64,000 bases of DNA from positions 1 to 64,000 of the IMG/VR virus record IMGVR_UViG_3300046049_000005. The stretch is one strand, 5' to 3'. A program made the position numbers and the translations under genes. Under the pieces are notes generated by a model. The model was not told the origin of the DNA. It saw only the letters and a list, made by a program, of their open reading frames with translations, and searched no databases. The stretch comes from a virus. Positions 1-42,269 of the stretch are shown piece after piece. Each line of letters opens with the position of its first letter. Within the stretch, counting starts at the first letter, position 1.

Positions 1-693
1 GGCCGAAAATCAGACTGAGATGGCTCTGTTATGTGGTCGGGGTTACTAAATATCCCACCCACCCCCCACCCTCTGATGTTCTAACCCTCCGATGTATCCC
101 CCATACCCTCCATACTGAAGGAATACTTCACCTGAAGACCCGTCCACGCTTCGCCTCCGCGGTCTATACGTGTAACCCCCACCTGAAGGGGTACCTCCAG
201 GTTCGGGCAACGCCGACACACCCGGAGTGAAGCGCAGTGAAACCCACATAGGGGGCGCGGTTGTGTATGCAGGATGCACACCCACAGTCATTGCACCCCC
301 TGGGGACAGCTTCAAGCCTACTGAATTTTGGAGATTGGGGTACCCTCTGGAATTGGAGGGTTGAAGTCGCTTAGCTCCGGAATTTCTCGCCCGACATTTA
401 CCCCAATCCTTCGGTGTTGGTGGTTCTCCATCGTATTTTCGGAGAATAGAGGATTTAGACTGACTCAACCCCGGAGAACACCGTAGAAATCCCCAATACG
501 GTCGTTTTCAGAAGATAGAACATCCTAAGACCCTCATTTTCGGTGTCTTCTTTCAATGGGGGTTTGACTGAATATTAGGGGGGTGTGTGAACCGTTCAGA
601 ATCGCAAGACTTGTGCGCACAATGATGTGCATCGACCCCCCCTTAATCTCGACCGAAGGGTTTATGTAGTACCGGGTTGAACAGTGAACTGCG
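1..693. other. ORF-poor left-end non-coding region
   Basis: The only six-frame ORFs are Pro/Arg/Gly-rich, unlike the acidic proteome elsewhere. Contains C-runs and small hairpins. The first convincing gene starts at 694. It may include a genome terminus or terminal repeat, but no second copy is visible in the window. Confidence 0.5.
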
Positions 694-1404
694 ATGTCGG
701 AAAGCAACCGGCGGTCGAAGGTCGCAGCGAAGCTGAATGAACTGGCGAAAGCCCTTGAAGTGGACATCGAAGATGTCCAAGTCACCATCGAAGATGGTGG
801 GTTTAGCAACACCGTCATAGACGGTGTTGAGGTGGCCGAGTACCTCACCGAAGGTGAGGAGGAACAGACTCCTACGGAGTCTGAAAACGCCACCGAAGGT
901 GGCGACGAGGCGGAAATCCATTTCGAAGAAATGGATTACAAGCACCTTCAGAAGCTTGCTTCTGAAGAACTGGCGGAGTACCCCGAAGACTCCAGTCGAG
1001 ATGGCCTCATAGAGGCCATGAAGGGCAATGTCGGAATCGAAGATTCCGAGTTCCACCAGACTCCTACGGAGTCTGACAACACTACCGAAGGTAGTGACAC
1101 CGAAGCCGAAGTCAGCGAAGCTGACTTGCTGGAAGCCGGAGTGAAGCCGAAGAACATCGAAGATGTTCTGGAGTACCGTTCGAAGAACGGTGTTTGCTCC
1201 GTCGAAGACTGCCCCTACGGGGCAAGCTCCGAAGAGTCGGACCACTGTGCTTCCCATCGGGGAAGCAGTTCGAACTCGGAGAGTTCGGAGTCTCCGAAGG
1301 AGAACCGGGAACTGTCGGAACTCAGCGAAGCTGAGAAGAGCCTCGTTTCGACTCTCATCGAAGATGAGGGTAAGGGCCTCGAAGAGGCCATCAGCATGGT
1401 CTAA
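694..1404 (+). CDS. hypothetical acidic early protein with a Cys/His metal-binding-like patch
   Basis: 236-aa D/E/S/T-rich ORF. Internal duplication QTPTES(E/D)N(A/T)TEG. Patch CSVEDC...HCASH. C-terminal motif LSEAEKSLVSTLIEDEG resembles the C-terminus of 4503..5549. Contains five of the ATCGAAGAT palindromes. Confidence 0.75.
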   Translation: MSESNRRSKVAAKLNELAKALEVDIEDVQVTIEDGGFSNTVIDGVEVAEYLTEGEEEQTPTESENATEGGDEAEIHFEEMDYKHLQKLASEELAEYPEDSSRDGLIEAMKGNVGIEDSEFHQTPTESDNTTEGSDTEAEVSEADLLEAGVKPKNIEDVLEYRSKNGVCSVEDCPYGASSEESDHCASHRGSSSNSESSESPKENRELSELSEAEKSLVSTLIEDEGKGLEEAISMV

Positions 1405-1558
1405 CTCCCTTTGGGAGTTAAGGACTCAAAGCCTTTGGCTTTGAATCATCGTAGATGACTACCGGTGCCGATGACCACCTTCGGTGGTGACGGTCAGGCT
1501 CCAATTTCTTAGAAATCGTGAAACCCAATGACGACAGAATCCAACATCGAAGATGTTG
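761..1558. repeat. cluster of six perfect palindromes centred on ATCGAAGAT
   Basis: 761-779 TGGACATCGAAGATGTCCA; 783-799 CACCATCGAAGATGGTG; 1031-1049 TCGGAATCGAAGATTCCGA; 1151-1169 AGAACATCGAAGATGTTCT; 1354-1368 CTCATCGAAGATGAG; 1542-1558 CAACATCGAAGATGTTG. All are in frame as x-I-E-D-x. Confidence 0.9.
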
Positions 1559-1722
1559 CATCGACTTCAAACAATTCCGAAGAAGTCTGGTTCACCACTT
1601 ATAGTGGTGACGAAGAGACTCACGAAGAGTGGAAGTCGTCGCAAACCCTCGAAGGGACCATTAGCGAGTCTAACTCGCTAAGAGCTTCGAGGACCACCCC
1701 GACAGAAGGGGGGGAACGATGA
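1528..1722 (+). CDS. hypothetical acidic protein
   Basis: 64-aa acidic ORF. Its stop overlaps the next start (ATGA at 1719). Contains one ATCGAAGAT palindrome. Confidence 0.6.
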   Translation: MTTESNIEDVASTSNNSEEVWFTTYSGDEETHEEWKSSQTLEGTISESNSLRASRTTPTEGGER

Positions 1723-1949
1723 ATCCGAAGACCGCTTCGGACTTCCTCGTAGCCTCTCCAAAAGTCTTCGAGGGATGGAGTGAGGAAGAAGAAGACCGAT
1801 GGGAACGAATTGGAGAGGCATCCCATAAAGGATGGGTCTGGATGACCCCCGCCGGAGCTATTCCCATTCAACCGATGGAAGGCGACGAAGTCCTTCAGTT
1901 CCTTGAAGAGCTGACGAAGTCTCGGCCCAAAGAGGCGAGCAATGAATAA
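1719..1949 (+). CDS. hypothetical protein
   Basis: 76-aa ORF translationally coupled to both neighbours. Acidic, Trp-rich. Confidence 0.6.
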   Translation: MNPKTASDFLVASPKVFEGWSEEEEDRWERIGEASHKGWVWMTPAGAIPIQPMEGDEVLQFLEELTKSRPKEASNE

Positions 1950-2217
1950 ACTCCAAAGGAGTTTCGACCTAAGCCGTGACCCTTCCGAGTATGAGGCTTC
2001 GACTCACCTCCTTCAAATGATTCGAGAGAGAAACATCCTTGAAAAGGATGTCGTGACGGAAGTAATTGAAGAGGGGGAAGTGGTCAAAGTCGATAGTAAC
2101 AACGGGGGTTCTGACCAATGCGTAACCCTTCGGGGCGAATGGCTCTTTAGCACTTTCGAGGTGAAAGTCTGTCCGAGGGATAAGGTGGTTCAGACCGCTT
2201 ACGAAGTCAAAGCGTAA
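1942..2217 (+). CDS. hypothetical protein
   Basis: 91-aa acidic ORF overlapping the previous stop. Followed by a T-tract. Confidence 0.65.
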   Translation: MNKLQRSFDLSRDPSEYEASTHLLQMIRERNILEKDVVTEVIEEGEVVKVDSNNGGSDQCVTLRGEWLFSTFEVKVCPRDKVVQTAYEVKA

Positions 2218-2237
2218 GGGACTTTTCGGATTCCGTC

Positions 2238-2247
2238 TTTTTTATTT
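2238..2247 (+). terminator. oligo-T tract, candidate archaeal terminator of the first gene cluster
   Basis: CTTTTTTATTT starts 20 nt after the stop at 2217. Archaeal termination commonly uses T-runs. Confidence 0.45.
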
Positions 2248-2272
2248 AGCGATATTGTGAGTAGCCAAGCCG

Positions 2273-2528
2273 TTCTAAGAGCCATGAGTAGGTCGTGAAG
2301 GAATTTTGTGCCAAAGGCGGTGGTACCCCTCGTAGCTTCTTAGAATAGTTTCTAACCCCCGTCACGACTCCAGAAATAGGTACTAAGACTCAACTTTCCA
2401 TTCTTAGAGCCATGAATAGGGTCAAGAGCTATTTCTAACCAAAGCTAAGGCGTACCCCTCGGTAGCTATTTGATACGCTCTAAGCCCTACTCATGCCTCC
2501 AGAAATCCCTCTCAAGACTCAAGCCTCG
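2273..2528. repeat. two imperfect ~128-nt tandem repeats
   Basis: The units start TTCT(A/T)AGAGCCATGA(G/A)TAGG at 2273 and 2401. They share GTACCCCTCG(G)TAGCT, CCAGAAAT and AAGACTCAA (2385, 2514). An inverted CATGAGTAGG copy lies at 2484-2497. Confidence 0.7.
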
Positions 2529-2598
2529 GAAACAAATCTCTTTGTGGAAACTCTCAATGTCCTACTTCGGAAGTAACACCCCCATTGTACCAGTTCTA

Positions 2599-2690
2599 AA
2601 GGTGATACTCGGGAAAGGGAGTGATACCCTCAATGTACTACCCTCAAAGTGGATACTCGGGAAAGGAGTTACTACCCTCAAAGTGGATTG
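2599..2690. repeat. two ~38-nt direct repeats, period 48 nt
   Basis: AAGGTGATACTCGGGAAAGGGAGTGATACCCTCAATGT versus AAGTGGATACTCGGGAAAGGAGTTACTACCCTCAAAGT. The sub-repeat TACCCTCAA(A/T)GT occurs three times. Confidence 0.75.
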
Positions 2691-2733
2691 TTAGAGAGTA
2701 GACCTAAACGGTGTGTACCTTTGCGGGTTTAGT

Positions 2734-2788
2734 CTCGATAAGGGGGGCGGACCCTTACCGTGTTAACGTTCAGTGATATACTTATCCC
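2734..2788 (+). repeat. shared intergenic module (copy 1 of 3)
   Basis: CTCGATAAGGGGGGCGGACCCTTACCGTGTTAACGTTCAGTGATATACTTATCCC. About 80% identical to 22672-22726 and to the reverse complement of 22787-22842. The last 18 nt are identical to the latter. Confidence 0.85.
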
Positions 2789-2830
2789 TCCTATACTAAC
2801 CGTTCAGGTCCAACTTTTGGTCCTAACTAT

Positions 2831-2948
2831 ACGGTACGTACAGTTAACGGTACGTACCATTAATGGTATGTACAAAGAGTCACCACCCTTAGAGGGTACC
2901 ACAAAGGGAGTACCACCGTAGAGTGTTATACTATTATAATAATATTAC
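2831..2948. promoter_or_regulatory. iteron-like 16-nt repeats plus an AT-rich stretch (candidate origin or regulatory hub)
   Basis: Three tandem 16-mers (ACGGTACGTACAGTTA, ACGGTACGTACCATTA, ATGGTATGTACAAAGA) at 2831-2878, including the 10-nt palindrome GGTACGTACC. GTACCAC(C) repeats at 2881-2915. AT-rich GTTATACTATTATAATAATATTACA at 2924-2948. Confidence 0.4.
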
Positions 2949-3289
2949 AGCAGCAGGGAGTAAGCACACACGCGCGAGGCTCGCTTCGCTCCGCGACTCG
3001 CTTCGCTCGTCGCTTACCGCGACCGCTCCGCGAAGGGACCACCACCTTATCGAGATGGAACACAGGGGGGAACCCTTTGAAGGAATAAACACAGAGGGGG
3101 TTTCCCGAGGAGAATTTTTCCACCAGACTTACCCCGGAATCTATCCCAGTTAGCGGCAAATATTGTCGGAGCCGAAACCCAATTTTCAGTCTGTGAGAGT
3201 CGAAAAATCTATGTCTCTCAGTAATCCCTATTCTCCGATTTTGCCGATACAGACTCTCTATCGGCAGAAATCAGCAGCGCAGCGGGAAG

Positions 3290-4396
3290 CGATAGATATA
3301 AGTACAACCGGGTTGAATTGTATGATAGGTCGGCGCAGGTACGCGGGACATCTCCGGGCACACACGCGGTGTGTTGTGCCTCGGAGGTTCCCCCTCACCC
3401 CCGCTCGCGTAATTAAGTGGGGTCGAGGCGGCCTTTAAGGGCCTTCGGCCCTTGCACGATACCCCTCGAAGAGTTCCTTCGGGAAATGGTAGCCCTTGAC
3501 AGGGCTTGAAATAAGTGGGGCGGTTACAATGCACTCCCCGTTACGGGGAGACGTGTCAGTAGCCGTTGAATATCTAAAAGCGACGTTGGGGGCGTTCCCC
3601 CCTGAAGCCACGTTCGCTAAGTTCATCCCAAAACCCTTCGTGTTTAGTAAGCTTGGTCGCGGTCTTCGGAACAACGCGAACCGAAGCCTTCGGGCTTTGG
3701 GGATGTGGCGTTCCCCGGACACCAATCTTGGCCCTTTGGGTGAAGGACGTTATGACGGAAGTTCTCCCGAACGAACCCTCGGAAGGTGCGAAAGCAGAAG
3801 CGAGGCCGGGAAATAAACCATGTTTGAACGTCTAAGGCCATTGCGGGAGATGCACTTCGGCAGAAGTGAGTACCCCATTAGGGACCCCCCACTTCGGTAC
3901 CTGAAACCTCACGGTGAATGGGACGAAGTGGTCAGGGAACCGCCAGCTTTGGCTTCACGCCGAAGCGGTAGGAAACTCCAGCGTTGGAGTGGACCCGAAG
4001 CGGCGTTTCAGGGAGTTCGGACCCTTTGGCTCCTTGATAGCCCACGAAGGCCGACCGACCCAAGAGGGTCACGATGATACCGTTACGGAGCCAAAATTGC
4101 CACGGAAAACCGGACGTTGAAGCTTTCGGGTAAGGCATCGAGAGATGTTCCGTCGAAGGTGGAGTTACGGGTAATGTCCGAGGGACCGTTGGAGTCCTCC
4201 TTAAACGGAGTAAGCCAACTTACATTTAATCGGACTAAGACAACTGGCGCAACGCAACCTATGAATTGACGAGAGTTCCTCGTCAGTTCAATCCGCGCTT
4301 CAAAGCGAACGGGAGCAACGAAGAGGCCTTCGGCCTCGGTTGTTACGGCGATGATGTAACGGAACTGACAAAGCCAGGAGATAGCGGCGTCGGTTA
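3290..4396 (+). ncRNA. candidate large structured non-coding RNA (class unknown)
   Basis: About 1.1 kb with no acidic ORF; the six-frame ORFs are Arg/Pro/Gly-rich. Dense stable hairpins, many capped by CTTCGG or GAAA: 3437-3453, 3474-3485, 3491-3506, 3534-3550, 3588-3601, 3684-3697, 3777-3805, 3853-3868, 3975-3990, 4268-4284, 4323-4337. Long-range pairings 3889-3895/3925-3931 and 4025-4033/4087-4095. Strand and ends are inferred. Confidence 0.5.
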
Positions 4397-4430
4397 GGAC
4401 CGCAGAGAAATTTATAAAAATCTGCGGTCC
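4397..4430 (+). promoter_or_regulatory. 10-bp inverted repeat enclosing a TATA-like box
   Basis: GGACCGCAGA-gaaatttataaaaa-TCTGCGGTCC. The TTTATA lies in the loop, about 90 nt upstream of the ATG at 4503. This looks like a promoter with an operator-like symmetry. Confidence 0.45.
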
Positions 4431-4502
4431 CCGACCCCGACCCCTTCGGGAGCGGTAAGGGGAGTGACGTTGCTCTACTTAGTGAGCAACACCCCAACTG
4501 CA

Positions 4503-5549
4503 ATGGCTATCGACTTCGCAACTCCGACCGCCGAACGTAGTAACGACAGCAACAGCAACGACGACGGTAGCGAGGCGTCTTTCGACGCGAATGAGTTGGC
4601 GGAGCTTTACATCGAAGCTTCGGAGTACGCCGCAACGCTCGCTGAAATGCGAGAGGCCAACGACATCGGGTGGCCTTCGATGGAGAGTGACCCTTCGATG
4701 GAGCAGTATTCGGACCTTCGGAGTCGTCACGAAGACAGCCACATCGCAAAGCGCCTCACCGTTTTCGCGGTTTGCGCGAAGGGCGAGCTTGGTGAGGAGC
4801 AGAACCACGTTAACGACCATTCCATCTCCGATTACGAAGAGTCGTATCCGGAGCTTCCCAGAACCACCTGGAGTGGTCTAAACGACGACGAGAAGGAGAT
4901 GCTTCGTGACGAAGGCATCGACCTCGAAGAGCTTGGCTTCGATGACGACTTCGATGGGCCGAAGCTTCTCGAAGTCGATGGCGAGCGACTGCCCCTCGGT
5001 CTTGAAGAGGGCGATGTGGAAAAGGCGGAGCGCATCTTCGGTAAGCTTCCCACCGAGCCTTCCGCCGCTACCGAAGATGGCTTCCGCGAGTCTTCCGACC
5101 CCGCCGTTTTCGGTGACGCCGATTCCAGCGAGGAAAGCACCGATAAGGTGGTGGATGATGACAGCGAAGACGACGCCGAGGCTGTCGAAGACAGCGAGGC
5201 GGAGGATGAGCCGGAGCTGGACCTTGCCGAGAATCCCGCCGCCGTTACCGAGGCCAACGCTCTGTACGTTCGAAGCGCCGTGACTGACATCACTTCGAAG
5301 CGTACCCTTCAGCGGATGAAGCGGGTCGAAGAGACGAACGACAACCGGAGCAGCGTTATCGGTCGCATCGAAGAGCGGCTTAACGCTTCGGATGTTGGCA
5401 ACGCCGCAGATACCGTTGACGGTGACAGCGACAGCGACAACAGCGACGACCGCAGCCTTAACGAGACTGAGATGAATCTCGCCACCACCCTTATCGAGAA
5501 CGACATCGTTGATAACCTCGATGAGGCCAAGGCGGAAATTCTCGGCTAA
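4503..5549 (+). CDS. hypothetical highly acidic protein
   Basis: Long D/E-rich ORF. The ORF track starts at a GTG at 4464; the first ATG (MAIDFATP) is at 4503. C-terminal LNETEMNLATTLIENDIV parallels the C-terminus of 694..1404. Confidence 0.75.
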   Translation: MAIDFATPTAERSNDSNSNDDGSEASFDANELAELYIEASEYAATLAEMREANDIGWPSMESDPSMEQYSDLRSRHEDSHIAKRLTVFAVCAKGELGEEQNHVNDHSISDYEESYPELPRTTWSGLNDDEKEMLRDEGIDLEELGFDDDFDGPKLLEVDGERLPLGLEEGDVEKAERIFGKLPTEPSAATEDGFRESSDPAVFGDADSSEESTDKVVDDDSEDDAEAVEDSEAEDEPELDLAENPAAVTEANALYVRSAVTDITSKRTLQRMKRVEETNDNRSSVIGRIEERLNASDVGNAADTVDGDSDSDNSDDRSLNETEMNLATTLIENDIVDNLDEAKAEILG

Positions 5550-5667
5550 TTCGATTCTCCCCTAAGACTTAAGCCGCTGGTTGTTTACTCTTAACCCGTT
5601 GGGTTAGTGACCCCTTCGGTTCGTGACCGACCGGGTTACTTGCGGTGCAGAGCAGAGGTGATGAGAA

Positions 5668-5814
5668 ATGTCAAATCACAAAGACTACGAAAGTGGAATG
5701 GGCCATGTCGAACCGTTCGATGACCGTGCCGAAGCCGAAGACGACCCCCATGTCGTTGACCCCGAAGTAATCGAACCTGACGAGCGATTCAGTGACGAAG
5801 CTCCGTTCTACTGA
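5668..5814 (+). CDS. small acidic protein (48 aa)
   Basis: ATG preceded by GAGGTGA. MSNHKDYESGMGHVEPFDDRAEAEDDPHVVDPEVIEPDERFSDEAPFY. Ends 2 nt before the next start. Below the ORF-track size cut-off. Confidence 0.5.
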   Translation: MSNHKDYESGMGHVEPFDDRAEAEDDPHVVDPEVIEPDERFSDEAPFY

Positions 5815-5816
5815 AA

Positions 5817-6026
5817 ATGAGTGACAACACCATCGAAGATGAGCTGGATGAGGAGAAGCTGGAAGAGATAGAAGACGCGAAGCGAGAGGCGAGGCGAAGC
5901 AAGACGAAGTGGGGCAGTCAGATAACTGACGATGACGACACCGTTGCTGGGGCAACAATCGAGGAGATAATGGCTAACTATGGAGTGACCCCTGAAGAAG
6001 CGAAGGAAATGTATCGAAATCGATGA
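5817..6026 (+). CDS. hypothetical acidic protein
   Basis: 69-aa ORF with an ATGA overlap to the next gene. Confidence 0.6.
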   Translation: MSDNTIEDELDEEKLEEIEDAKREARRSKTKWGSQITDDDDTVAGATIEEIMANYGVTPEEAKEMYRNR

Positions 6027-6220
6027 GTCACGAATACAACGACCCCGACTGGGAGTTCGAGGTCGATACGGTGCAGCGAGGCGGGATTACGAAGCGAACC
6101 AAAGTGAGGCGTCACGGTAGGGTTCACTACCCCGACGTTAGCGACGAGGTTGACGAGAGCGAAAAGCGCGAGCGAAAGGACCGAGGCTTCGACGGTCACG
6201 GAATCCCAACTGGTATCTAA
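6023..6220 (+). CDS. hypothetical protein
   Basis: 65-aa ORF, coupled to neighbours. Confidence 0.55.
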   Translation: MSHEYNDPDWEFEVDTVQRGGITKRTKVRRHGRVHYPDVSDEVDESEKRERKDRGFDGHGIPTGI

Positions 6221-6222
6221 TC

Positions 6223-6375
6223 ATGGATAACAGACAAAGGTTCTTAGACGGCTTAGGCAACGCCCTCGTGAATGCTAAGATGTTCCGAGAGATGGATTCA
6301 CCAGAATCGAGGGCCGCCTTTGGCACAACGTTCCGAGCGGCAGAGAGGGCGTACTACGGAGATGTTTCTCGATGA
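6223..6375 (+). CDS. small hypothetical protein (50 aa)
   Basis: ATG 2 nt after the previous stop. Its stop overlaps the ATG at 6372. MDNRQRFLDGLGNALVNAKMFREMDSPESRAAFGTTFRAAERAYYGDVSR. Confidence 0.45.
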   Translation: MDNRQRFLDGLGNALVNAKMFREMDSPESRAAFGTTFRAAERAYYGDVSR

Positions 6376-6635
6376 AAGAGACACCCAACATCGCGGCGGC
6401 AGAGGGACCGGACGAAGAAGTGCGACTGAAGAGCCTTCTTGCCTCAATGTTTCACGGTCGCATCGACAGCTTCGAGTTCAAAGATGTGACTGTGAGGCGG
6501 TGCGTCGATTCAATTGAGGTGGTTGTTGATTACGAAGGAACGGTCGGGGGTAGGCTCTATATCCCCTCTACAACCGTTCAGTTCGCCTATGAGTGGCTCG
6601 AAGAGAAGAACGAAATCTATGGCGACTGGCAATGA
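6372..6635 (+). CDS. hypothetical protein
   Basis: 87-aa acidic ORF. Confidence 0.6.
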   Translation: MKETPNIAAAEGPDEEVRLKSLLASMFHGRIDSFEFKDVTVRRCVDSIEVVVDYEGTVGGRLYIPSTTVQFAYEWLEEKNEIYGDWQ

Positions 6636-6742
6636 GTTATCGACGCTATCGACGGCGACTTCGCCGCAAGGGGTTGCGGTGCGGAGGGAGTCGAGAGGGA
6701 ACCACCACCTTATCGGTTCGGAACATCGGAGGTAGATAATCC

Positions 6743-7006
6743 ATGAAGCTAACAATAGGTGAGAAGTGGCATAAGGTGACAGAGAGTTACGTCGAAGAGC
6801 TGACCGTCGAAGGCATCGCCGTTCTCGATGGTCGAATTGAAAGGGGTGAAGTAGTCCATTCAAACAATGACGAGTTGAAAATCGAAGTGAGAATCATCAA
6901 TAACAACAATGCGCGATTCTTCACGACCGGAATCAGACTGAAGCATCTGGTTCAAGACTGGGAGCGAGGCGAGGCTCCAGTTGAAATGCCGGGGATGCTC
7001 GTTTGA
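6743..7006 (+). CDS. hypothetical protein
   Basis: 87-aa ORF. The 14-mer CCACCACCTTATCG (6702-6715) lies ~30 nt upstream of the ATG. Confidence 0.6.
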   Translation: MKLTIGEKWHKVTESYVEELTVEGIAVLDGRIERGEVVHSNNDELKIEVRIINNNNARFFTTGIRLKHLVQDWERGEAPVEMPGMLV

Positions 7007-7080
7007 TGTTCCTAATCGAAGAAAAGACTTAACTCGCTTCGCGTTAATTGTTAAATAGGGGCGAAACCCCGAAAGGGGTC

Positions 7081-7114
7081 GAGGGGGTGCTGGCCGCTCC
7101 CCTCCTGATGAGCC
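7081..7114 (+). promoter_or_regulatory. leader hairpin plus CCTGATGAGCC box (copy 1)
   Basis: GAGGGG-gtgctggccgct-CCCCTC followed by CCTGATGAGCC. The same box and a covarying hairpin recur at 14066-14095. It lies ~40 nt upstream of the ATG at 7153. Confidence 0.45.
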
Positions 7115-7152
7115 TACGGCTTCATCGGACACAACCTTCCGAGGAAAGACCA

Positions 7153-7647
7153 ATGACACGAAACGACGACGGATTCAACGTAGTCGAAGAGATGCCCCCT
7201 TCGGAGTGGGCGAACTATCGCTTCGATGCCTTCGGTGAGTACATCCACCTCGTTCCCGACCCCGAAGCAGGCGAGCTTCGGTGCTACCGTTCGATAAGCG
7301 AGCCGGCAAAGGAGAGCGAGCGAATCAAGACGACCATCGAGAGGGTGAAGTTCACCTTCAACTGGGAGAGAGAAGAAGATAAGCTGAATTACTTCTATCT
7401 CACCGCCCAGAAGGCCGAGTCGTTCCTGACCTTTGTTGACCTCCTTAGCAGGGGTCGAGAGAGTTCGGTCGGCTTCTCGTGGTGGGAAGAAAGTGGGATG
7501 AAAATGATGGAAAGCGAGCGAAGCGGAGTCGAAACGTTGAACCTTCGCTTCACGAAGCCGAACGGAGTCGAGCGACGGATGCAAATTACCTCGGCTTGGC
7601 AGTGTCCGGTTCACAAGATGGCTGGCATCGAAGGTGAGGGATTTTAA
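7153..7647 (+). CDS. hypothetical protein
   Basis: The first ATG (MTRNDDGF...) is chosen over the upstream alternative start at 7048, whose N-terminus covers the structured leader. The 19 nt around the ATG are identical to those at 8093. Confidence 0.65.
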   Translation: MTRNDDGFNVVEEMPPSEWANYRFDAFGEYIHLVPDPEAGELRCYRSISEPAKESERIKTTIERVKFTFNWEREEDKLNYFYLTAQKAESFLTFVDLLSRGRESSVGFSWWEESGMKMMESERSGVETLNLRFTKPNGVERRMQITSAWQCPVHKMAGIEGEGF

Positions 7648-8087
7648 TGGAAGACTCAATTCCCGAAGAGCGAATCATTGAGGCGTACAGGGCGGCCCTT
7701 CGGTACGGCCCGGAGCCGTTTGATAATGAACCGAGGGCGAAGCACGTGACGACTTCGAAGATGTTCGATTTCTTGATGATGATGAAAGATTCGGACGTAT
7801 TCACCAGTAGTGCTTACCACAAAGCAGGACAGGTCGGTGTAGATGTTTGCTGTGTGGATTGGATGCAGGAGATAGCCGAAGAAACTGGCGACCTTCAAGA
7901 GTTCATCGAATCCCTGCTCGATGGGTATGGTGAAGGCCGCGAAGTCTGGTACGTCTATGAGACAAATGCGGGCGACGAAAAGGCCGGACCCTTCTCGAAT
8001 AAGGAAAACGCAGTTCGGAGTTCTGGAATGTTTCAGGCCGATAAGGGGGAGAAGCATCATATCGTGAAGCGATACGAAGACGAGTGA
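7647..8087 (+). CDS. hypothetical acidic protein
   Basis: 146-aa ORF whose start overlaps the previous stop. Confidence 0.7.
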   Translation: MEDSIPEERIIEAYRAALRYGPEPFDNEPRAKHVTTSKMFDFLMMMKDSDVFTSSAYHKAGQVGVDVCCVDWMQEIAEETGDLQEFIESLLDGYGEGREVWYVYETNAGDEKAGPFSNKENAVRSSGMFQADKGEKHHIVKRYEDE

Positions 8088-39086: not shown

Positions 39087-39216
39087 GTGCGGTAACTGGG
39101 AGTACGGAGAAGAGCCTCGGAAATGCCCGCTCTGTGGTACTGAAGCCCGTGAAGAACAGCCCCGTTACGGTACGACCATCTCGATTACCTGTGATGGCTG
39201 GAGTGATATAGAATAA
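39073..39216 (+). CDS. small rubredoxin-like zinc-ribbon protein (47 aa)
   Basis: MVIYKCGNWEYGEEPRKCPLCGTEAREEQ... The last base of its stop is the first base of the polB ATG. Confidence 0.45.
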   Translation: MVIYKCGNWEYGEEPRKCPLCGTEAREEQPRYGTTISITCDGWSDIE

Positions 39217-42200
39217 TGTCAGAAAAACTATATGTGACGACAGTAGAGTCGCTGTATCCGGGCGAGACAAACTTTGACTCTGTTGTCGTCAGACTGTACG
39301 GACGGAACGCGGAGCGCGAACCACTCAGAGTGACTGTCCGGGGGTTCTCGCCGTACTTCCTCACTACCGAGGACCAAACCGATAAGGTGCAGCCGGCAGA
39401 CCACCAGGACCTTATCGAGTACGAATCCGTGGATACCATTCCGCTCTCCGAACGCTTTGACGACGAACCCTCTGACTTGGTGAAGGTCAACGTCAAATAT
39501 CCACATTCGGTGCCGCGACTCCGCGAAGAGTTCGACAAGACCTGGGGTGCTGACACCCTCTTCACCGAACGTTTTCGGATTGACCACGGCATCAAGAGCG
39601 GTGTAGAGGTTCCCACCGATAATCGGCGGGGGAATCACATCATCGTAGACAAAGACCATATTTCTCCTGTGGAGATTACCGATGTGGAACCAAGGGTGAT
39701 GACCCTCGACATCGAGACGGACGACCGTGGTTCAGGGTTCCCCGACCCCGGCGAGGCTCGGATTCTGAGCATTGCCGTCCACGACAGCTACGACGATGAA
39801 TACACGGTCTTTCTCGACCGCGACCGCGAGGATTTCGAGTCGTTCTTCGACCTGTCTCCCGTTCAGCGTGCGAAACTCGCCAACGACGACGAAGAGTTCG
39901 GGCTTGCCGACCTCGGCATCGACCAACCCGACGCGCTGAAGCACTCCCCAACCGAAAAGACCATGCTCGACCTTTTCGGGCTGTTCGTTCGGGAGAAAAA
40001 TCCAGATTTACTGACAGGATGGAATTGCGGTGACAGCAGCAATGATGGCTTCGACCTGCCCCACATCATCAAACGTATGAAGCGTGTCGGAGCCAAAGCC
40101 TCGCGCCTTTCACGAGAGTCTGAGGTAGAGATTGACGACTACAACGACCAATTCAAACCCAACATCGCGGGTCGCGCTCTCTACGACCTTATGGATGGCT
40201 GGGGCGATACGAAGTTCACTGAACCGCGCTCCTACGCTCTTGACGATGTTGCTGAAGATGCGCTCGATGATACCAAAATCGAGCATCAGGAGCAGGGGTA
40301 CTATGAGATGTACCGCGACAATCCTGTCAAATTTATTAATTACAACGTCAAAGACACCCGCCTCACCGTGGAAATCAACGAGGAAGAAGGCGTTCTGAAG
40401 TTCAAGCGTAGACTAAAGGACATCGTTGGCGTGGACTGGAGACGGACGCACGAGAACAACGAGTTCATCGAGATGGCCGTGCGTCGGAAGTGCCGAGAAA
40501 ATGGTCTTGCGATGATTACAGCCTACGACAACCCCCACGTCGGGGGCGATACCGATGAAGTAAACTACGAAGGGGCCTACGTTTTTCCTTCTTTCTCGGG
40601 ACGTAAGGAGAACGTCGTCGGCATCGATTTGGAGTCTCTATATCCTCGGACTCAGCAGATGCTCAATGTCAGTCCCGATGCCCGTATCGAAAAAGAGCGT
40701 GCAGAGCGAGAAGGGATACCGCACGTAGTTGCCGAAAACGGACAGACGTTCCGTACTGACCACGACGGAATTGTCCGTGAATTGGTTGACGACTATATGG
40801 TCCTGAAGCAGGAGTTCAAGGAAGAGCGCAATCAGGCAGAACCGGGTAGTGATAGGAGAGAGAAGTTGGCCGAATCCTATAATGTCACTAAAACGATAGT
40901 TAACTCGATATACGGTTATTCGGGGTGGAACCGTTCTCCGCTCTACAATCCACACGACGCCGCCGCTGTCACCCTTACCGGTCAGGCCGTTATCAAGAGA
41001 ACCGCGGAGTATGTCGATGAAGAAACCGAAGGAAGTGTGGCATATGGCGATTCTGTCCCTGACTTCGAGCCGGTGTACGTCCGAGTCGATGGTGACGTAG
41101 ATATACGACCTATCGAGTCTGTGCACGATAGTCTCGAACCGGGAGAGTTTGAGGTGTGGGCTGACGGTGGTTGGACTACCTGTAACGATGTGATTCGAAA
41201 GCCCAACAGGAAACAAATGTACCGTGTCAGAACAGATAACGGACTCGTCCATGTTACTGAAGACCACGGGTTAGTCCGAGATGATGGAACTGAAGTACCC
41301 CCTACGGATGTTGAACCCGGCGACCATCTATTACATACATCGCTTCAATCTGCTACCGGGGACACCAGCAACATCTCTCTCGATAAGGCGTGGCTCTATG
41401 GACTGCTCGTGGCAGACGGAACTGCAATAGGGTCACAGTTTAAAATCTGCAAAAATGATGTCGGGCTTTTGGAGAGAGCCGCGACAGCGTTAGACATCTG
41501 CTTCGGGTTCGATACAGAAATTTGTGACTACCGCGAATCGAGCGGCACCAAGCAACTTCGTGGCGGAGATAATGAATACGGTGCCGTCTCAGAGCTGGTG
41601 AGCGAACTCGAACCGAAGCTATACACTCCTGACGGGAAGAAAAGAGTTCCAAAGTCCGTGTTGAATGGGTCGTCGTGGGTGATGAAGGCGTTCCTCGATG
41701 GCTACCAAGCCGGCGACGGTGACGGAGATGAGAGATACGAAAAGAGGTTCCACCGCTCCTACACAAACAGCCACACTCTTGGTGCTGGCCTTACATACAT
41801 TCTCGACCGTCTTGGACAGGATGCCGGCGTCAATGTTCGAGATAATCACGGGAAGGAATATCCCCGGATTCATTCTCGGGAAGATGCTGGCTGTCGAACA
41901 GAAGTGCTTGAGGTTGAACCGATAGACTACGAAGGAGAGTACGTCTACGACCTCTCAACTGATTCGGAACACTTCAATGCAGGAATTGGACGAATCACAG
42001 TCCACAACACAGATAGCGTCTACTGTAAGTGGCCTGACGATTGGGGACAGATAAAGACTCTCGAAACCGTAGAGGAACATTGCGAACATCTAAACAATTC
42101 TATCTATCCTCAATTGTGTGAAAAGTACGGAATCGACCCCGAGGACAATAAGTGGCGCATGGAGCTTGAGAAGTTAGGAATGATGTTTATGGCCGGGGGG

Positions 42201-42269
42201 AAGAAGCGATACGCAAGCTCGGTTAGGTGGTCCGAGGGGATGCCCTTCAATGAGGTGTTGGTAGAATGA
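39216..42269 (+). CDS. polB: family-B DNA polymerase, N-terminal ORF (exonuclease and palm/fingers, includes an intein)
   Basis: Exo I MTLDIETD, Exo II GWNCGDSSNDGFDLPH, Exo III YNVKDTRL. Motif A GIDLESLYP, motif B KTIVNSIYGYSG. Motif C YGD|TDS is interrupted by the intein. KKRYA follows the intein. Confidence 0.9.
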   Translation: MSEKLYVTTVESLYPGETNFDSVVVRLYGRNAEREPLRVTVRGFSPYFLTTEDQTDKVQPADHQDLIEYESVDTIPLSERFDDEPSDLVKVNVKYPHSVPRLREEFDKTWGADTLFTERFRIDHGIKSGVEVPTDNRRGNHIIVDKDHISPVEITDVEPRVMTLDIETDDRGSGFPDPGEARILSIAVHDSYDDEYTVFLDRDREDFESFFDLSPVQRAKLANDDEEFGLADLGIDQPDALKHSPTEKTMLDLFGLFVREKNPDLLTGWNCGDSSNDGFDLPHIIKRMKRVGAKASRLSRESEVEIDDYNDQFKPNIAGRALYDLMDGWGDTKFTEPRSYALDDVAEDALDDTKIEHQEQGYYEMYRDNPVKFINYNVKDTRLTVEINEEEGVLKFKRRLKDIVGVDWRRTHENNEFIEMAVRRKCRENGLAMITAYDNPHVGGDTDEVNYEGAYVFPSFSGRKENVVGIDLESLYPRTQQMLNVSPDARIEKERAEREGIPHVVAENGQTFRTDHDGIVRELVDDYMVLKQEFKEERNQAEPGSDRREKLAESYNVTKTIVNSIYGYSGWNRSPLYNPHDAAAVTLTGQAVIKRTAEYVDEETEGSVAYGDSVPDFEPVYVRVDGDVDIRPIESVHDSLEPGEFEVWADGGWTTCNDVIRKPNRKQMYRVRTDNGLVHVTEDHGLVRDDGTEVPPTDVEPGDHLLHTSLQSATGDTSNISLDKAWLYGLLVADGTAIGSQFKICKNDVGLLERAATALDICFGFDTEICDYRESSGTKQLRGGDNEYGAVSELVSELEPKLYTPDGKKRVPKSVLNGSSWVMKAFLDGYQAGDGDGDERYEKRFHRSYTNSHTLGAGLTYILDRLGQDAGVNVRDNHGKEYPRIHSREDAGCRTEVLEVEPIDYEGEYVYDLSTDSEHFNAGIGRITVHNTDSVYCKWPDDWGQIKTLETVEEHCEHLNNSIYPQLCEKYGIDPEDNKWRMELEKLGMMFMAGGKKRYASSVRWSEGMPFNEVLVE
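41052..42008 (+). mobile_element. intein (319 aa) with a LAGLIDADG homing endonuclease, inserted in polymerase motif C
   Basis: The host sequence reads ...VAYGD / SVPDF...ITVHN / TDSVY... It starts with Ser and ends with His-Asn, with +1 Thr restoring YGDTDS. Internal LAGLIDADG blocks LYGLLVADGT and FLDGYQAGDG. Confidence 0.85.

Follow-up and report, generated by a model that had tools for sequence, protein, structure and literature searches.

An array of perfect triloop hairpins over the putative immediate-early genes near the terminus of a haloarchaeal myovirus genome, with similar arrays in unrelated tailed viruses

The first 64,000 nucleotides (nt) of the IMG/VR virus record IMGVR_UViG_3300046049_000005, referred to here as the window, contain near their left end a dense array of short perfect hairpins lying over coding sequence. 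It is well supported that some 30 near-contiguous hairpins cover the first ~1.3 kb transcribed from the predicted promoter nearest the terminus, and likewise that the array acts in cis as a nucleic-acid structure superimposed on the coding sequence and is not a collection of words for protein binding. Comparison with related viruses shows the array to be selected, or at least actively maintained, strand-biased and perfectly Watson-Crick over the first 1-2 kb of the predicted terminal transcription unit. Here it is proposed, with a confidence that stops a little short of even, that coding-embedded arrays of 20-60 perfect extrudable DNA mini-hairpins are an unrecognised class of cis-acting genome element, which would mark the first-entering immediate-early DNA of diverse archaeal and bacterial tailed viruses, be selected strongly enough to dictate amino acids and act as DNA structure in the first minutes of infection. 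The array appears to be new in arrangement and context. It is rated as new because a search of open-access texts found no earlier description of such arrays and because the comparative paper on the HF1 group, which stresses palindrome avoidance, describes none; the array was already present in virus genomes published since 2013.

Enumeration found 31 perfect stem-loops with a 3-nt loop at 761-2051, having stems of 5-10 base pairs (bp), 28 of them with a stem of at least 6 bp. The six palindromes reported in the original prediction (761-779, 783-799, 1031-1049, 1151-1169, 1354-1368 and 1542-1558) were all recovered at exactly these coordinates with perfect arms, and they are a subset of the larger set. 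Hairpins with a stem of at least 6 bp number 50 in the 64-kb window, 28 of which fall in its first 2.3 kb, and nucleotides inside perfect hairpins make up 60% of 761-1681 compared with 5% elsewhere. Centres of neighbouring hairpins are a median of 30 nt apart, and linkers measure 3-13 nt where the array is densest. Twenty-five of the 31 hairpins are located inside open reading frames (ORFs), none was found in the non-coding 1-760, and almost every hairpin has its own sequence, a single arm sequence being used twice (865-883 and 1057-1075). Loops of 0, 1, 2, 4 and 6 nt showed no enrichment in the enumeration, and an apparent excess of 5-nt loops corresponds mostly to 3-nt-loop hairpins recounted minus their closing pair.

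The constant ATCGAAGAT core that had been described for these palindromes is an artefact of the six-member sample; the full set shares a C...G closing pair and, in ~60% of hairpins, a GAA loop, and the core variants besides ATCGAAGAT include ACC-GAA-GGT, AGC-GAA-GCT, TTC-GAA-GAA, CC-TAC-GG, TC-ATA-GA and others. ATCGAAGAT itself has nine copies in the window against 1.1 expected, a number that none of 100 dinucleotide shuffles reached. Six of the nine copies are within 766-1554, and the additional copies, previously counted as two, are three (5832, 19153 and 55227), all non-palindromic with stems of 3-4 bp. The first ORF (694-1404, hereafter ORF1) has 20 hairpins; 2000 codon shuffles gave a mean of 0.19 (maximum 3), and 2000 synonymous shuffles, which keep the protein, a mean of 1.03 (maximum 7). 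The fold z-score of the hairpin region is about -11 on both strands with either DNA or RNA parameters. Chance or composition is excluded by the dinucleotide, codon and synonymous shuffles, and a comparable palindrome density was found neither in the shuffled controls nor genome-wide. The statement that the palindromes are written in frame is right for most hairpins: the loop is a codon in 16 of the 21 hairpins in or at the end of ORF1, and the other five lie in another phase. A restriction-site decoy was considered and rejected, the zone not being enriched for even-length palindromes of the restriction type.

Judging from its gene content (a family-B DNA polymerase with an intein, a tail sheath, baseplate J and two tRNAs), the window is from a haloarchaeal myovirus. 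Its proteins are 53-60% identical to those of the Hafunaviridae (HSTV-2, HRTV-7, HRTV-11, HRTV-5 and HF2-like viruses); DNA searches of 1-8000 and 1-2300 against phage records gave no DNA-level match. ORF1 has 24 metagenomic homologues, and in every contig the homologue opens the rightward arm after a gap of 0.7-1 kb. The leftward arm holds terminase and capsid genes where the contig is long enough (L007, L010 and L011), and several contigs stop ~600 nt upstream of the homologue. The motif TTTAT(A/G)TG is kept in all hairpin-bearing loci, ~30 nt 5' of a conserved TGC(A/G)ATGTCG start, which suggests that the first-gene mRNA is leaderless, and the first hairpin is found ~45-65 nt past the start codon. 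The gene in the position of ORF1 in the complete HSTV-2, HRTV-7 and HRTV-11 genomes is the last one, ~620 nt from the end, and the hairpin cluster thus adjoins a genuine genome terminus, as the original prediction had supposed. These three genomes have terminal direct repeats and replicate via concatemers (PMC4284463; PMC7230728), and in HF2 the 0-5 kb at the corresponding end constitute the immediate-early region (PMC7230728). By analogy with this relative, the hairpin zone of the window would be an immediate-early unit.

Conservation was followed in ten metagenomic relatives (34-74% protein identity) and the cultured viruses HSTV-2, HRTV-7 and HRTV-11, all of which have the array at the same positions with compensatory changes in the arms. 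Eleven of 12 homologous loci contain 18-27 hairpins per gene, compared with ~2 in synonymous shuffles. In the hairpin-bearing loci the zone starts at the gene start, with no hairpins in the 3 kb upstream, holds a density of 7-9 hairpins per 250 nt that is nearly constant across lineages, and fades after 1-2 kb, having passed through the intergenic spacer into whichever genes follow. In the codon alignment the hairpins share columns down to 34% protein identity and their arms differ; at column 67, the arms are CCTCACC, CATCTCC, CCTCTCC, CGTCACC, CGCCACC and CACCAGC, and the partner arm matches each of them perfectly. Two or three Watson-Crick types occur at 145 of 434 aligned stem pairs, and where genomes differ on both sides of a pair, pairing is retained in 60% of cases, vs ~27% against the hairpin-free homologue. 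Linkers evolve faster than stems and loops, and individual hairpins turn over through gains and losses with a constant total number.

The amino acids follow these changes. One protein position reads T-T-E-G-G, T-S-E-A-G or T-I-E-D-G, which are translations of ACC-NNN-GAA-N'N'N'-GGT, and between HSTV-2 and HRTV-11 (68% identity in this gene) 48 of 68 stem differences are paired. The HSTV-2 protein has only a marginal relation to the ORF1 family of the window (hhalign probability 52%), yet the array is present in its gene, and therefore the array follows position more than gene. Cultured Mincapviruses, whose protein is barely homologous, likewise have their array at this terminal position. The comparison of relatives thus bears out the expectation that arm changes stay compensatory, in ten loci and three cultured viruses, and it is well supported by these alignments that self-complementarity itself has been preserved by evolution, the arm sequence drifting and the protein following. 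The features of the zone, with column numbers from the codon alignment and counts from the ten loci, are as follows.

661-667, plus strand: TATA-like box TTTATGT, ~30 nt 5' of the TGC(A/G)ATGTCG start; predicted promoter of a leaderless first gene
694-1404, plus strand: ORF1, acidic protein of 236 amino acids (aa) with a C-terminal Cys/His motif and 20 hairpins; first gene of the rightward arm
761-779, plus strand: hairpin of 8 bp, GAA loop; the first of the six originally reported; column 26, in 10/10 loci with four arm sequences
783-799, plus strand: hairpin of 7 bp, GAA loop; the second originally reported; column 33
807-829, plus strand: hairpin of 10 bp, ATA loop; column 42
843-859, plus strand: hairpin of 7 bp, GAA loop; column 67, in 10/10 loci with six arm variants
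865-883, plus strand: hairpin of 8 bp, TAC loop; column 75
888-904, plus strand: hairpin of 7 bp, GAA loop; column 86
915-937, plus strand: hairpin of 10 bp, GAA loop; column 107
946-967, plus strand: 10-bp palindrome CTTCAGAAGC-TT-GCTTCTGAAG, effectively 9 bp with a 4-nt loop; the sole match with a 2-nt loop in 1-2300
1001-1019, plus strand: hairpin of 8 bp, ATA loop; from the enumeration
1031-1049, plus strand: hairpin of 8 bp, GAA loop; the third originally reported
1057-1075, plus strand: hairpin of 8 bp, TAC loop; column 154
1080-1096, plus strand: hairpin of 7 bp, GAA loop; column 178, in 10/10 loci, arms ACC/AGC/ATC giving TTEGG/TSEAG/TIEDG
1109-1127, plus strand: hairpin of 8 bp, GAA loop, including GCGAAGC (1114-1120); from the enumeration
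1151-1169, plus strand: hairpin of 8 bp, GAA loop; the fourth originally reported; column 208
1175-1191, plus strand: hairpin of 7 bp, out-of-frame GAA loop, reading R-S-K-N-G; column 216
1210-1224, plus strand: hairpin of 6 bp, TAC loop, encoding CPYGA; column 227
1271-1303, plus strand: three overlapping hairpins at 1271-1287 (7 bp, GGA), 1284-1298 (6 bp, GTC) and 1291-1303 (5 bp, GAA)
1321-1335, plus strand: hairpin of 6 bp, GAA loop; column 267, in 10/10 loci with four arm variants
1354-1368, plus strand: hairpin of 6 bp, GAA loop; the fifth originally reported; column 282
1375-1389, plus strand: hairpin of 6 bp, GAA loop; column 289
1402-1516, plus strand: spacer between genes 1 and 2 with a chain of five hairpins of mixed loops, at 1402-1420 (TTT), 1426-1444 (TTT), 1446-1458 (GTA), 1474-1488 (TTC) and 1504-1516 (TTA); the chain is in all ten loci with compensatory changes
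1528-1722, plus strand: ORF2, 64 aa, with hairpins at 1542-1558 (GAA, the sixth originally reported), 1592-1610 (TAT) and 1661-1681 (CTA)
1948-1964, plus strand: outlying hairpin of 7 bp, AAA loop, within the ORF at 1942-2217
2033-2051, plus strand: last hairpin of the zone, 8 bp, GAA loop
643-1257, minus strand: antisense ORF of 204 aa, a by-product of the palindromes

The antisense ORF at 643-1257 was rejected as a gene and is regarded, from the symmetry, as a palindrome shadow, open because palindromes read nearly alike on both strands. The spacers at 1402-1516 and in L001-L012 have a chain of four or five hairpins together with an invariant-looking CCGATGCCGATGACCACCTTCGGTGGTGACGG block, and this combination may be a distinct signal within the array, for instance one for termination, processing or binding.

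For the ORF1 protein, tblastn against phages, a back-translated peptide scan of IMG/VR and a PDB profile search each returned nothing. Pfam gave only a C2HC/C2H2 zinc-finger insert in nine of the 24 homologues, and a weak PHROGs match to endonuclease VII (E = 7e-4) was judged spurious. In P0009, P0013, P0014, P0017-P0019 and P0021-P0023 the central segment of the family is replaced by a C2H2/C2HC zinc finger, EVACQCGAVFDSKQSLYGHSSHC, and P0014, P0015, P0020 and P0022 have a variant of the C-terminal metal-binding motif; the protein family is modular as judged from these alignments. Elsewhere in the window, the polymerase gene (39216-42269, plus strand) has an intein bearing a LAGLIDADG homing-endonuclease domain. 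The 64 kb contain no GATC and two CTAG, and 22 six-mer palindromes are missing; strong avoidance of restriction sites and palindromes is known for the HF1 group (PMC7230728). This avoidance of even palindromes contrasts sharply with the array of interrupted ones.

One homologous locus departs from the others. The ORF1 homologue of contig L009 (41% protein identity) has one hairpin and codes the same peptides non-palindromically (CTA-AGC-GAT-GCC-GAA vs CTC-AGC-GAA-GCT-GAG in the window) at equal GC content. Identity between L009 and the window is ~80% on both flanks and falls to 9-60% only across window positions ~600-2000, which is the hairpin zone; the L009 cassette (L009:6400-7700) has no ORF2 and contains an N-terminally extended homologue of the ORF at 1942-2217. 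The alignment is evidence of modular exchange at the exact borders of the zone, and to judge from this homologue the ORF1 protein does not need the palindromes. Peptide repeats driven by the protein were rejected as the origin of the array, since L009 has the same peptides without palindromes and synonymous shuffling abolishes the hairpins. The idea that coding sequence has been shaped by self-complementarity is upheld by the compensatory arms, by the paired amino-acid changes and by the L009 peptides without palindromes. Symmetry lost with the peptides kept, which the original prediction had named as contrary evidence, is absent from the ten loci and three cultured viruses and occurs only in the replaced cassette of L009. 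Because the array is dispensable in this near-isogenic genome, its benefit would be conditional or accessory, not part of core replication or packaging.

Arrays of the same kind are present in other viruses. A scan of IMG/VR for three generic hairpin 17-mers returned 69 loci, ~20 of which sit in arrays of 8-34 perfect triloop hairpins per kb, and most of the array loci have no ORF1 homologue. These include contigs with a terminase 55% identical to that of marine Rhodobacteraceae podoviruses and contigs with an SPβ-like terminase. In a T7-like layout on one strand the array is 3' of the terminase gene, at the expected start of the terminal repeat and early region, and in another contig it heads the arm diverging from the portal/terminase arm. 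The densest arrays seen are in L202:5000-10000 (66 hairpins in 5 kb, 65% GC, with a short match to Arthrobacter phage Rizwana) and L026:1-4000 (53 hairpins in 4 kb, 46% GC, T7-like one-strand layout). C-G closure reaches 70-90% in the arrays of other viruses, and wherever the coding strand can be told, GAA is the commonest loop of the sense strand. Several array contigs have a (D+E)/(K+R) ratio of 0.9-1.3, compared with 1.9 for the window and HSTV-2, and an adaptation of halophiles only was rejected because arrays occur in contigs of ordinary proteome acidity. Putative hosts of the uncultured array contigs were inferred from terminase similarity and amino-acid composition. A scan of genome contigs for one hairpin gave only chance single matches in unrelated bacteria, and the trait is patchy.

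An accessory, patchy and cassette-like distribution would suit evasion of host defence, in which self-complementary stretches of 30-40 nt spoil guides (spacers and crRNAs of clustered regularly interspaced short palindromic repeats, CRISPR, or Argonaute guides) or hide from defences that read structure or sequence. Early genes are preferred sources of CRISPR type III spacers (PMC13575424), the hairpins take up most of the zone at their 30-nt spacing, and the avoidance of GATC, CTAG and six-mer palindromes gives further signatures of the kind. Evasion, however, needs neither perfect Watson-Crick pairing in the stems nor a defined loop; of a 70-kb genome only 1-2 kb would be protected, and motifs of the restriction type are not concentrated in the zone. 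As an explanation of the array it is improbable.

The loop and its closing pair are the parts that the hairpins have in common. Of 128 distinct hairpins, 123 are closed by 5'-C...G-3' and 86 have a GAA or GGA loop. GAA accounts for 66% of loops in phase 0 (in frame) and 52% in phase 2, where it reads Ser-Lys, and for 6-7% of the C-NNN-G centres in the other genes of the virus. The phase-2 ratio of GAA to TTC is 17:0, vs a null of 21:19, and the loop preference is therefore strand-specific, for the sense strand. A GAA loop as a mere Glu codon was rejected by the phase-2 loops and the compositional null. The motif C(GNA)G is a hallmark of exceptionally stable DNA mini-hairpins, and those of the GCGAAGC type resist nuclease and single-stranded-DNA-binding protein (SSB) (PMC13037366); the promoter hairpins of phage N4 need the C-G closing pair together with the loop G and A for their extrusion, which does take place in vivo (PMC4496689).

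This loop bias also bears on the first of the original suggestions, that the palindromes are sites for a dimeric sequence-specific protein (packaging or small terminase recognition at pac, or an early repressor). A strand-specific bias is meaningless on a symmetric duplex site, and the dyad symmetry and closeness to the terminal repeat that such sites would explain come with arms that vary among the 31 copies and among relatives, only C-NNN-G being common. The ATCGAAGAT shared by six copies is one variant of many, no copy lies in the non-coding 1-760, the likely place for pac or operator sites, and unrelated viruses show the same architecture with unrelated sequences. The array being made of such sites is highly improbable.

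The 23 array zones contain 383 distinct perfect helices of at least 7 bp and 46 with one internal mismatch, of which nine are G·T and five A·C; shuffles of the zones give 3.3 perfect and 7.4 mismatched helices. Among aligned stem pairs, G·T and A·C states are equal in number (103 each), and the control, a structured RNA block 2 kb downstream treated in the same kind of analysis, has 10.2% G·U vs 1.2% A·C. By these counts the array does not evolve like RNA, and the pairing pattern is taken as evidence either that the structures compete with the duplex, as extruded DNA, or that one arm is copied from the other in DNA. Ordinary mRNA structure, which had been among the original suggestions, is disfavoured because G·U pairs are not tolerated in the array, unlike in the structured RNA 2 kb downstream; hairpin or cruciform signals are the best-fitting of those options.

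The reading preferred here, tentatively and as something near an even chance without quite reaching it, is that the predicted hairpins act as DNA, forming a mini-hairpin array on the first-transcribed segment. Action as DNA is suggested because the design rule of short stem, GNA loop and C-G closure, the near-zero mismatches and the absence of G·T wobble fit competition with the duplex and are unlike an RNA folding freely. The putative first-entered and first-transcribed segment would be unwound or put under negative supercoiling, whether by gyrase or behind a moving RNA polymerase, and the sense (non-template) strand would snap into mini-hairpins or cruciforms resistant to SSB and nucleases. 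The extruded string could then alter the state of the leading DNA segment in the first minutes of infection. Candidate benefits are an immediate-early unit kept open and processively transcribed, help with genome internalisation, shielding from SSB, nucleases and other host factors, and priming.

It is possible, if rather unlikely, that the element works instead at the level of RNA. Hairpins every ~30 nt in the nascent immediate-early mRNA would leave no long single-stranded RNA, keep out RNases as well as termination factors (Rho in bacteria, FttA/aCPSF1 in archaea), and suppress R-loops and polymerase backtracking, giving a processive first transcript. In a T7-like scheme, RNA polymerase could then reel the genome into the cell. 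The zone matches the predicted transcription unit, in that it starts 45-65 nt past the leaderless start, spans the spacer and is absent upstream; its loops are biased toward the sense strand, the region is immediate-early in HF2, T7-like and cobavirus-like contigs have their arrays where the early region begins, and the RNA fold z-score is -11.8. Genome entry in N4 is driven by early transcription (PMC4496689). All this has to be set against the absence of wobble tolerance (nine G·T helices vs 383 perfect ones, G·T equal to A·C, and 10% G·U in the neighbouring RNA) and against the triloop itself, since C(GNA)G is optimal for DNA (PMC13037366), whereas RNA would favour tetraloops. The RNA-level role is weakened only, as correction at the DNA level could impose perfection on an element acting as RNA.

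Such correction could also be the whole of the explanation, although this is unlikely. Intrastrand template switching (quasi-palindrome correction or snap-back synthesis) may create and perfect palindromes in a heavily transcribed, often single-stranded terminal segment, with C(GNA)G-seeded hairpins favoured on the exposed non-template strand and, having no function, tolerated in disordered acidic proteins. A mutational by-product of this type explains why the stems are perfect, why G·T and A·C are equally frequent, why the loops are of the DNA type with a sense-strand bias, and why the array keeps to the transcribed zone, whichever gene is there, and is patchy; the turnover of hairpins, with many gains and losses, and the ability of L009 to do without the array agree with it. 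It does not account so well for the same columns being kept down to 34% identity, including in structured parts of the protein (CPYGA, YRSKNG), for linkers evolving faster than stems and loops, or for a density staying near 7-9 per 250 nt in all lineages. The convergent appearance at the same genomic position in unrelated viruses also speaks against it, palindromes as a rule do harm and this genome avoids them elsewhere, and the absence of arrays from other highly expressed genes is left unexplained.

Action as DNA, the reading preferred above, has several points against it. The loops of the non-coding spacer are mixed (TTC, TTT, ATA, GTA and GAA), GAA not being obligatory. No array is present in L009 or in the Haloferacalesviruses HRTV-5 and HF2, and three cultured relatives of the bacterial-phage contigs, Lentibacter phage ICBM2, Celeribacter phage P12053L and Arthrobacter phage Rizwana, are without arrays. 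The zone coincides with the transcription unit, not with distance from the DNA end, the spacer being in and the upstream non-coding sequence out, and this match equally fits a role at the RNA level. Perfect pairing could reflect the generation of palindromes by arm-to-arm templated correction, not function. Extruded palindromes are normally hazardous, as substrates of Mre11-Rad50/SbcCD-type and resolvase nucleases, and hairpin formation in vivo, as DNA or RNA, is a prediction.

Directly 3' of the hairpin zone, 2217-3010 is an iteron-like non-coding stretch with a 128-nt tandem duplication (2270-2522), repeats of 34-48 nt (2569-2700), ACGGTACGTAC repeats (2831-2878), an AT-rich patch (2930-2945) and a 17-nt tandem (2975-3008). 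It is a candidate for a replication origin or for the promoter-bearing 'intergenic repeats' described for the HF1 group. Further on, an ORF-free block at ~3150-4464 (plus strand) is 68-80% identical in DNA among most related loci, is conserved only as shorter blocks in those that diverge most, and falls in the region that is immediate-early in HF2. Alignment A2 of this block (3517-4451) has 177 consensus pairs, 80 of them with compensatory double changes, and no Rfam family was found for ~3150-4464; the block behaves as a large structured RNA and could be a new viral non-coding RNA of ~0.9-1.3 kb. The next conserved gene (4464-5549, plus strand) encodes a very acidic protein of 361 aa and has a fold z-score of about -5 to -6 despite its single perfect hairpin.

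If functional, the array would be a second code over immediate-early genes, in which DNA self-complementarity overrides amino-acid choice, and a use by design of non-B DNA in viruses that otherwise purge palindromes. It would point to a new step at the start of infection (entry, immediate-early transcription or evasion of host factors) common to haloarchaeal myoviruses and unrelated bacterial phages. If it is a mutational by-product, it would be the most extreme case known to us of templated palindrome formation shaping proteins. The cultured HSTV-2, HRTV-7 and HRTV-11 and the natural hairpin-free allele of L009 make the question open to direct experiment. For annotation, a consequence of such arrays is the appearance of spurious antisense ORFs and of odd low-complexity 'protein families'; the arrays may also show which end of an uncultured viral genome is physically the early one.

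Among known systems, the early-promoter hairpins of N4 extrude from duplex DNA at physiological supercoiling, and their non-conserved stem bases need only pair (PMC4496689). Like the hairpins of the window they have a short stem (5-7 bp in N4, 6-10 bp in the window), a 3-nt loop, C-G closure and a G...A loop, and they are located in the first DNA to enter, as those of the window would be. N4, however, has three intergenic copies with a conserved flanking promoter, whereas the window has ~30 copies in coding sequence with unconserved flanks; the N4 sequence from -17 to +1 is conserved with recognised bases, and the arms and flanks of the window share none. The N4 hairpin is read on the template strand by an injected polymerase of 3500 aa, while the stable loop of the window is on the non-template strand, and no giant virion RNA polymerase was found among the large ORFs scanned with Pfam and PHROGs in 64 kb of the 72.7-kb contig. 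The mini-hairpins of the G4 origin and ssiA have the same C-GNA-G motif (CCGAAGG in ssiA; GCGAAGC at 1114-1120 of the window) and resist SSB and nucleases (PMC13037366), but they are one or a few hairpins at the defined origin of a single-stranded DNA replicon, in contrast to a long array in the genes of a double-stranded DNA virus.

The linear telomeres of Streptomyces also have packed palindromes with 3-nt loops and sheared G:A closure near the end of a linear replicon, which fold when the strand is single-stranded (PMC4513846). They occupy the extreme ~300 nt of a 3' overhang and are non-coding, conserved in sequence and bound by Tap and terminal protein, whereas the array of the window extends from ~760 nt inward, beyond the terminal repeat, and is coding, variable in sequence and has its stable loops on the 5'-ended strand; that of HSTV-2 stops more than 620 nt short of the terminus. 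With structured RNAs that overlap coding sequence the array shares compensatory substitutions that hold pairing and a structure overlapping the reading frame, but those RNAs, including the block at ~3150-4464, have G·U pairs, long-range pairs, tetraloops and bulges, and the array consists of local perfect triloops. The DNA of the first-step transfer of T5 has a cluster of inverted repeats in the first-entering DNA with a proposed role in transfer; that region is non-coding with repeated sequences, unlike an array of unique perfect triloop hairpins in genes. Repetitive extragenic palindromes (REP) and bacterial interspersed mosaic elements (BIME), miniature inverted-repeat transposable elements (MITE) and CRISPR repeats are each one intergenic sequence repeated, whereas the array hairpins are nearly all unique and lie mostly in ORFs (25/31). 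Intrinsic terminators are GC-rich hairpins with a T run at the close of a transcription unit, whereas the array hairpins lie within ORFs and have no T run after them; unlike operator or pac arrays they share no half-site, only C-NNN-G, with arms that covary freely. Every system compared differs from the array in copy number, location, sequence conservation or partner proteins.

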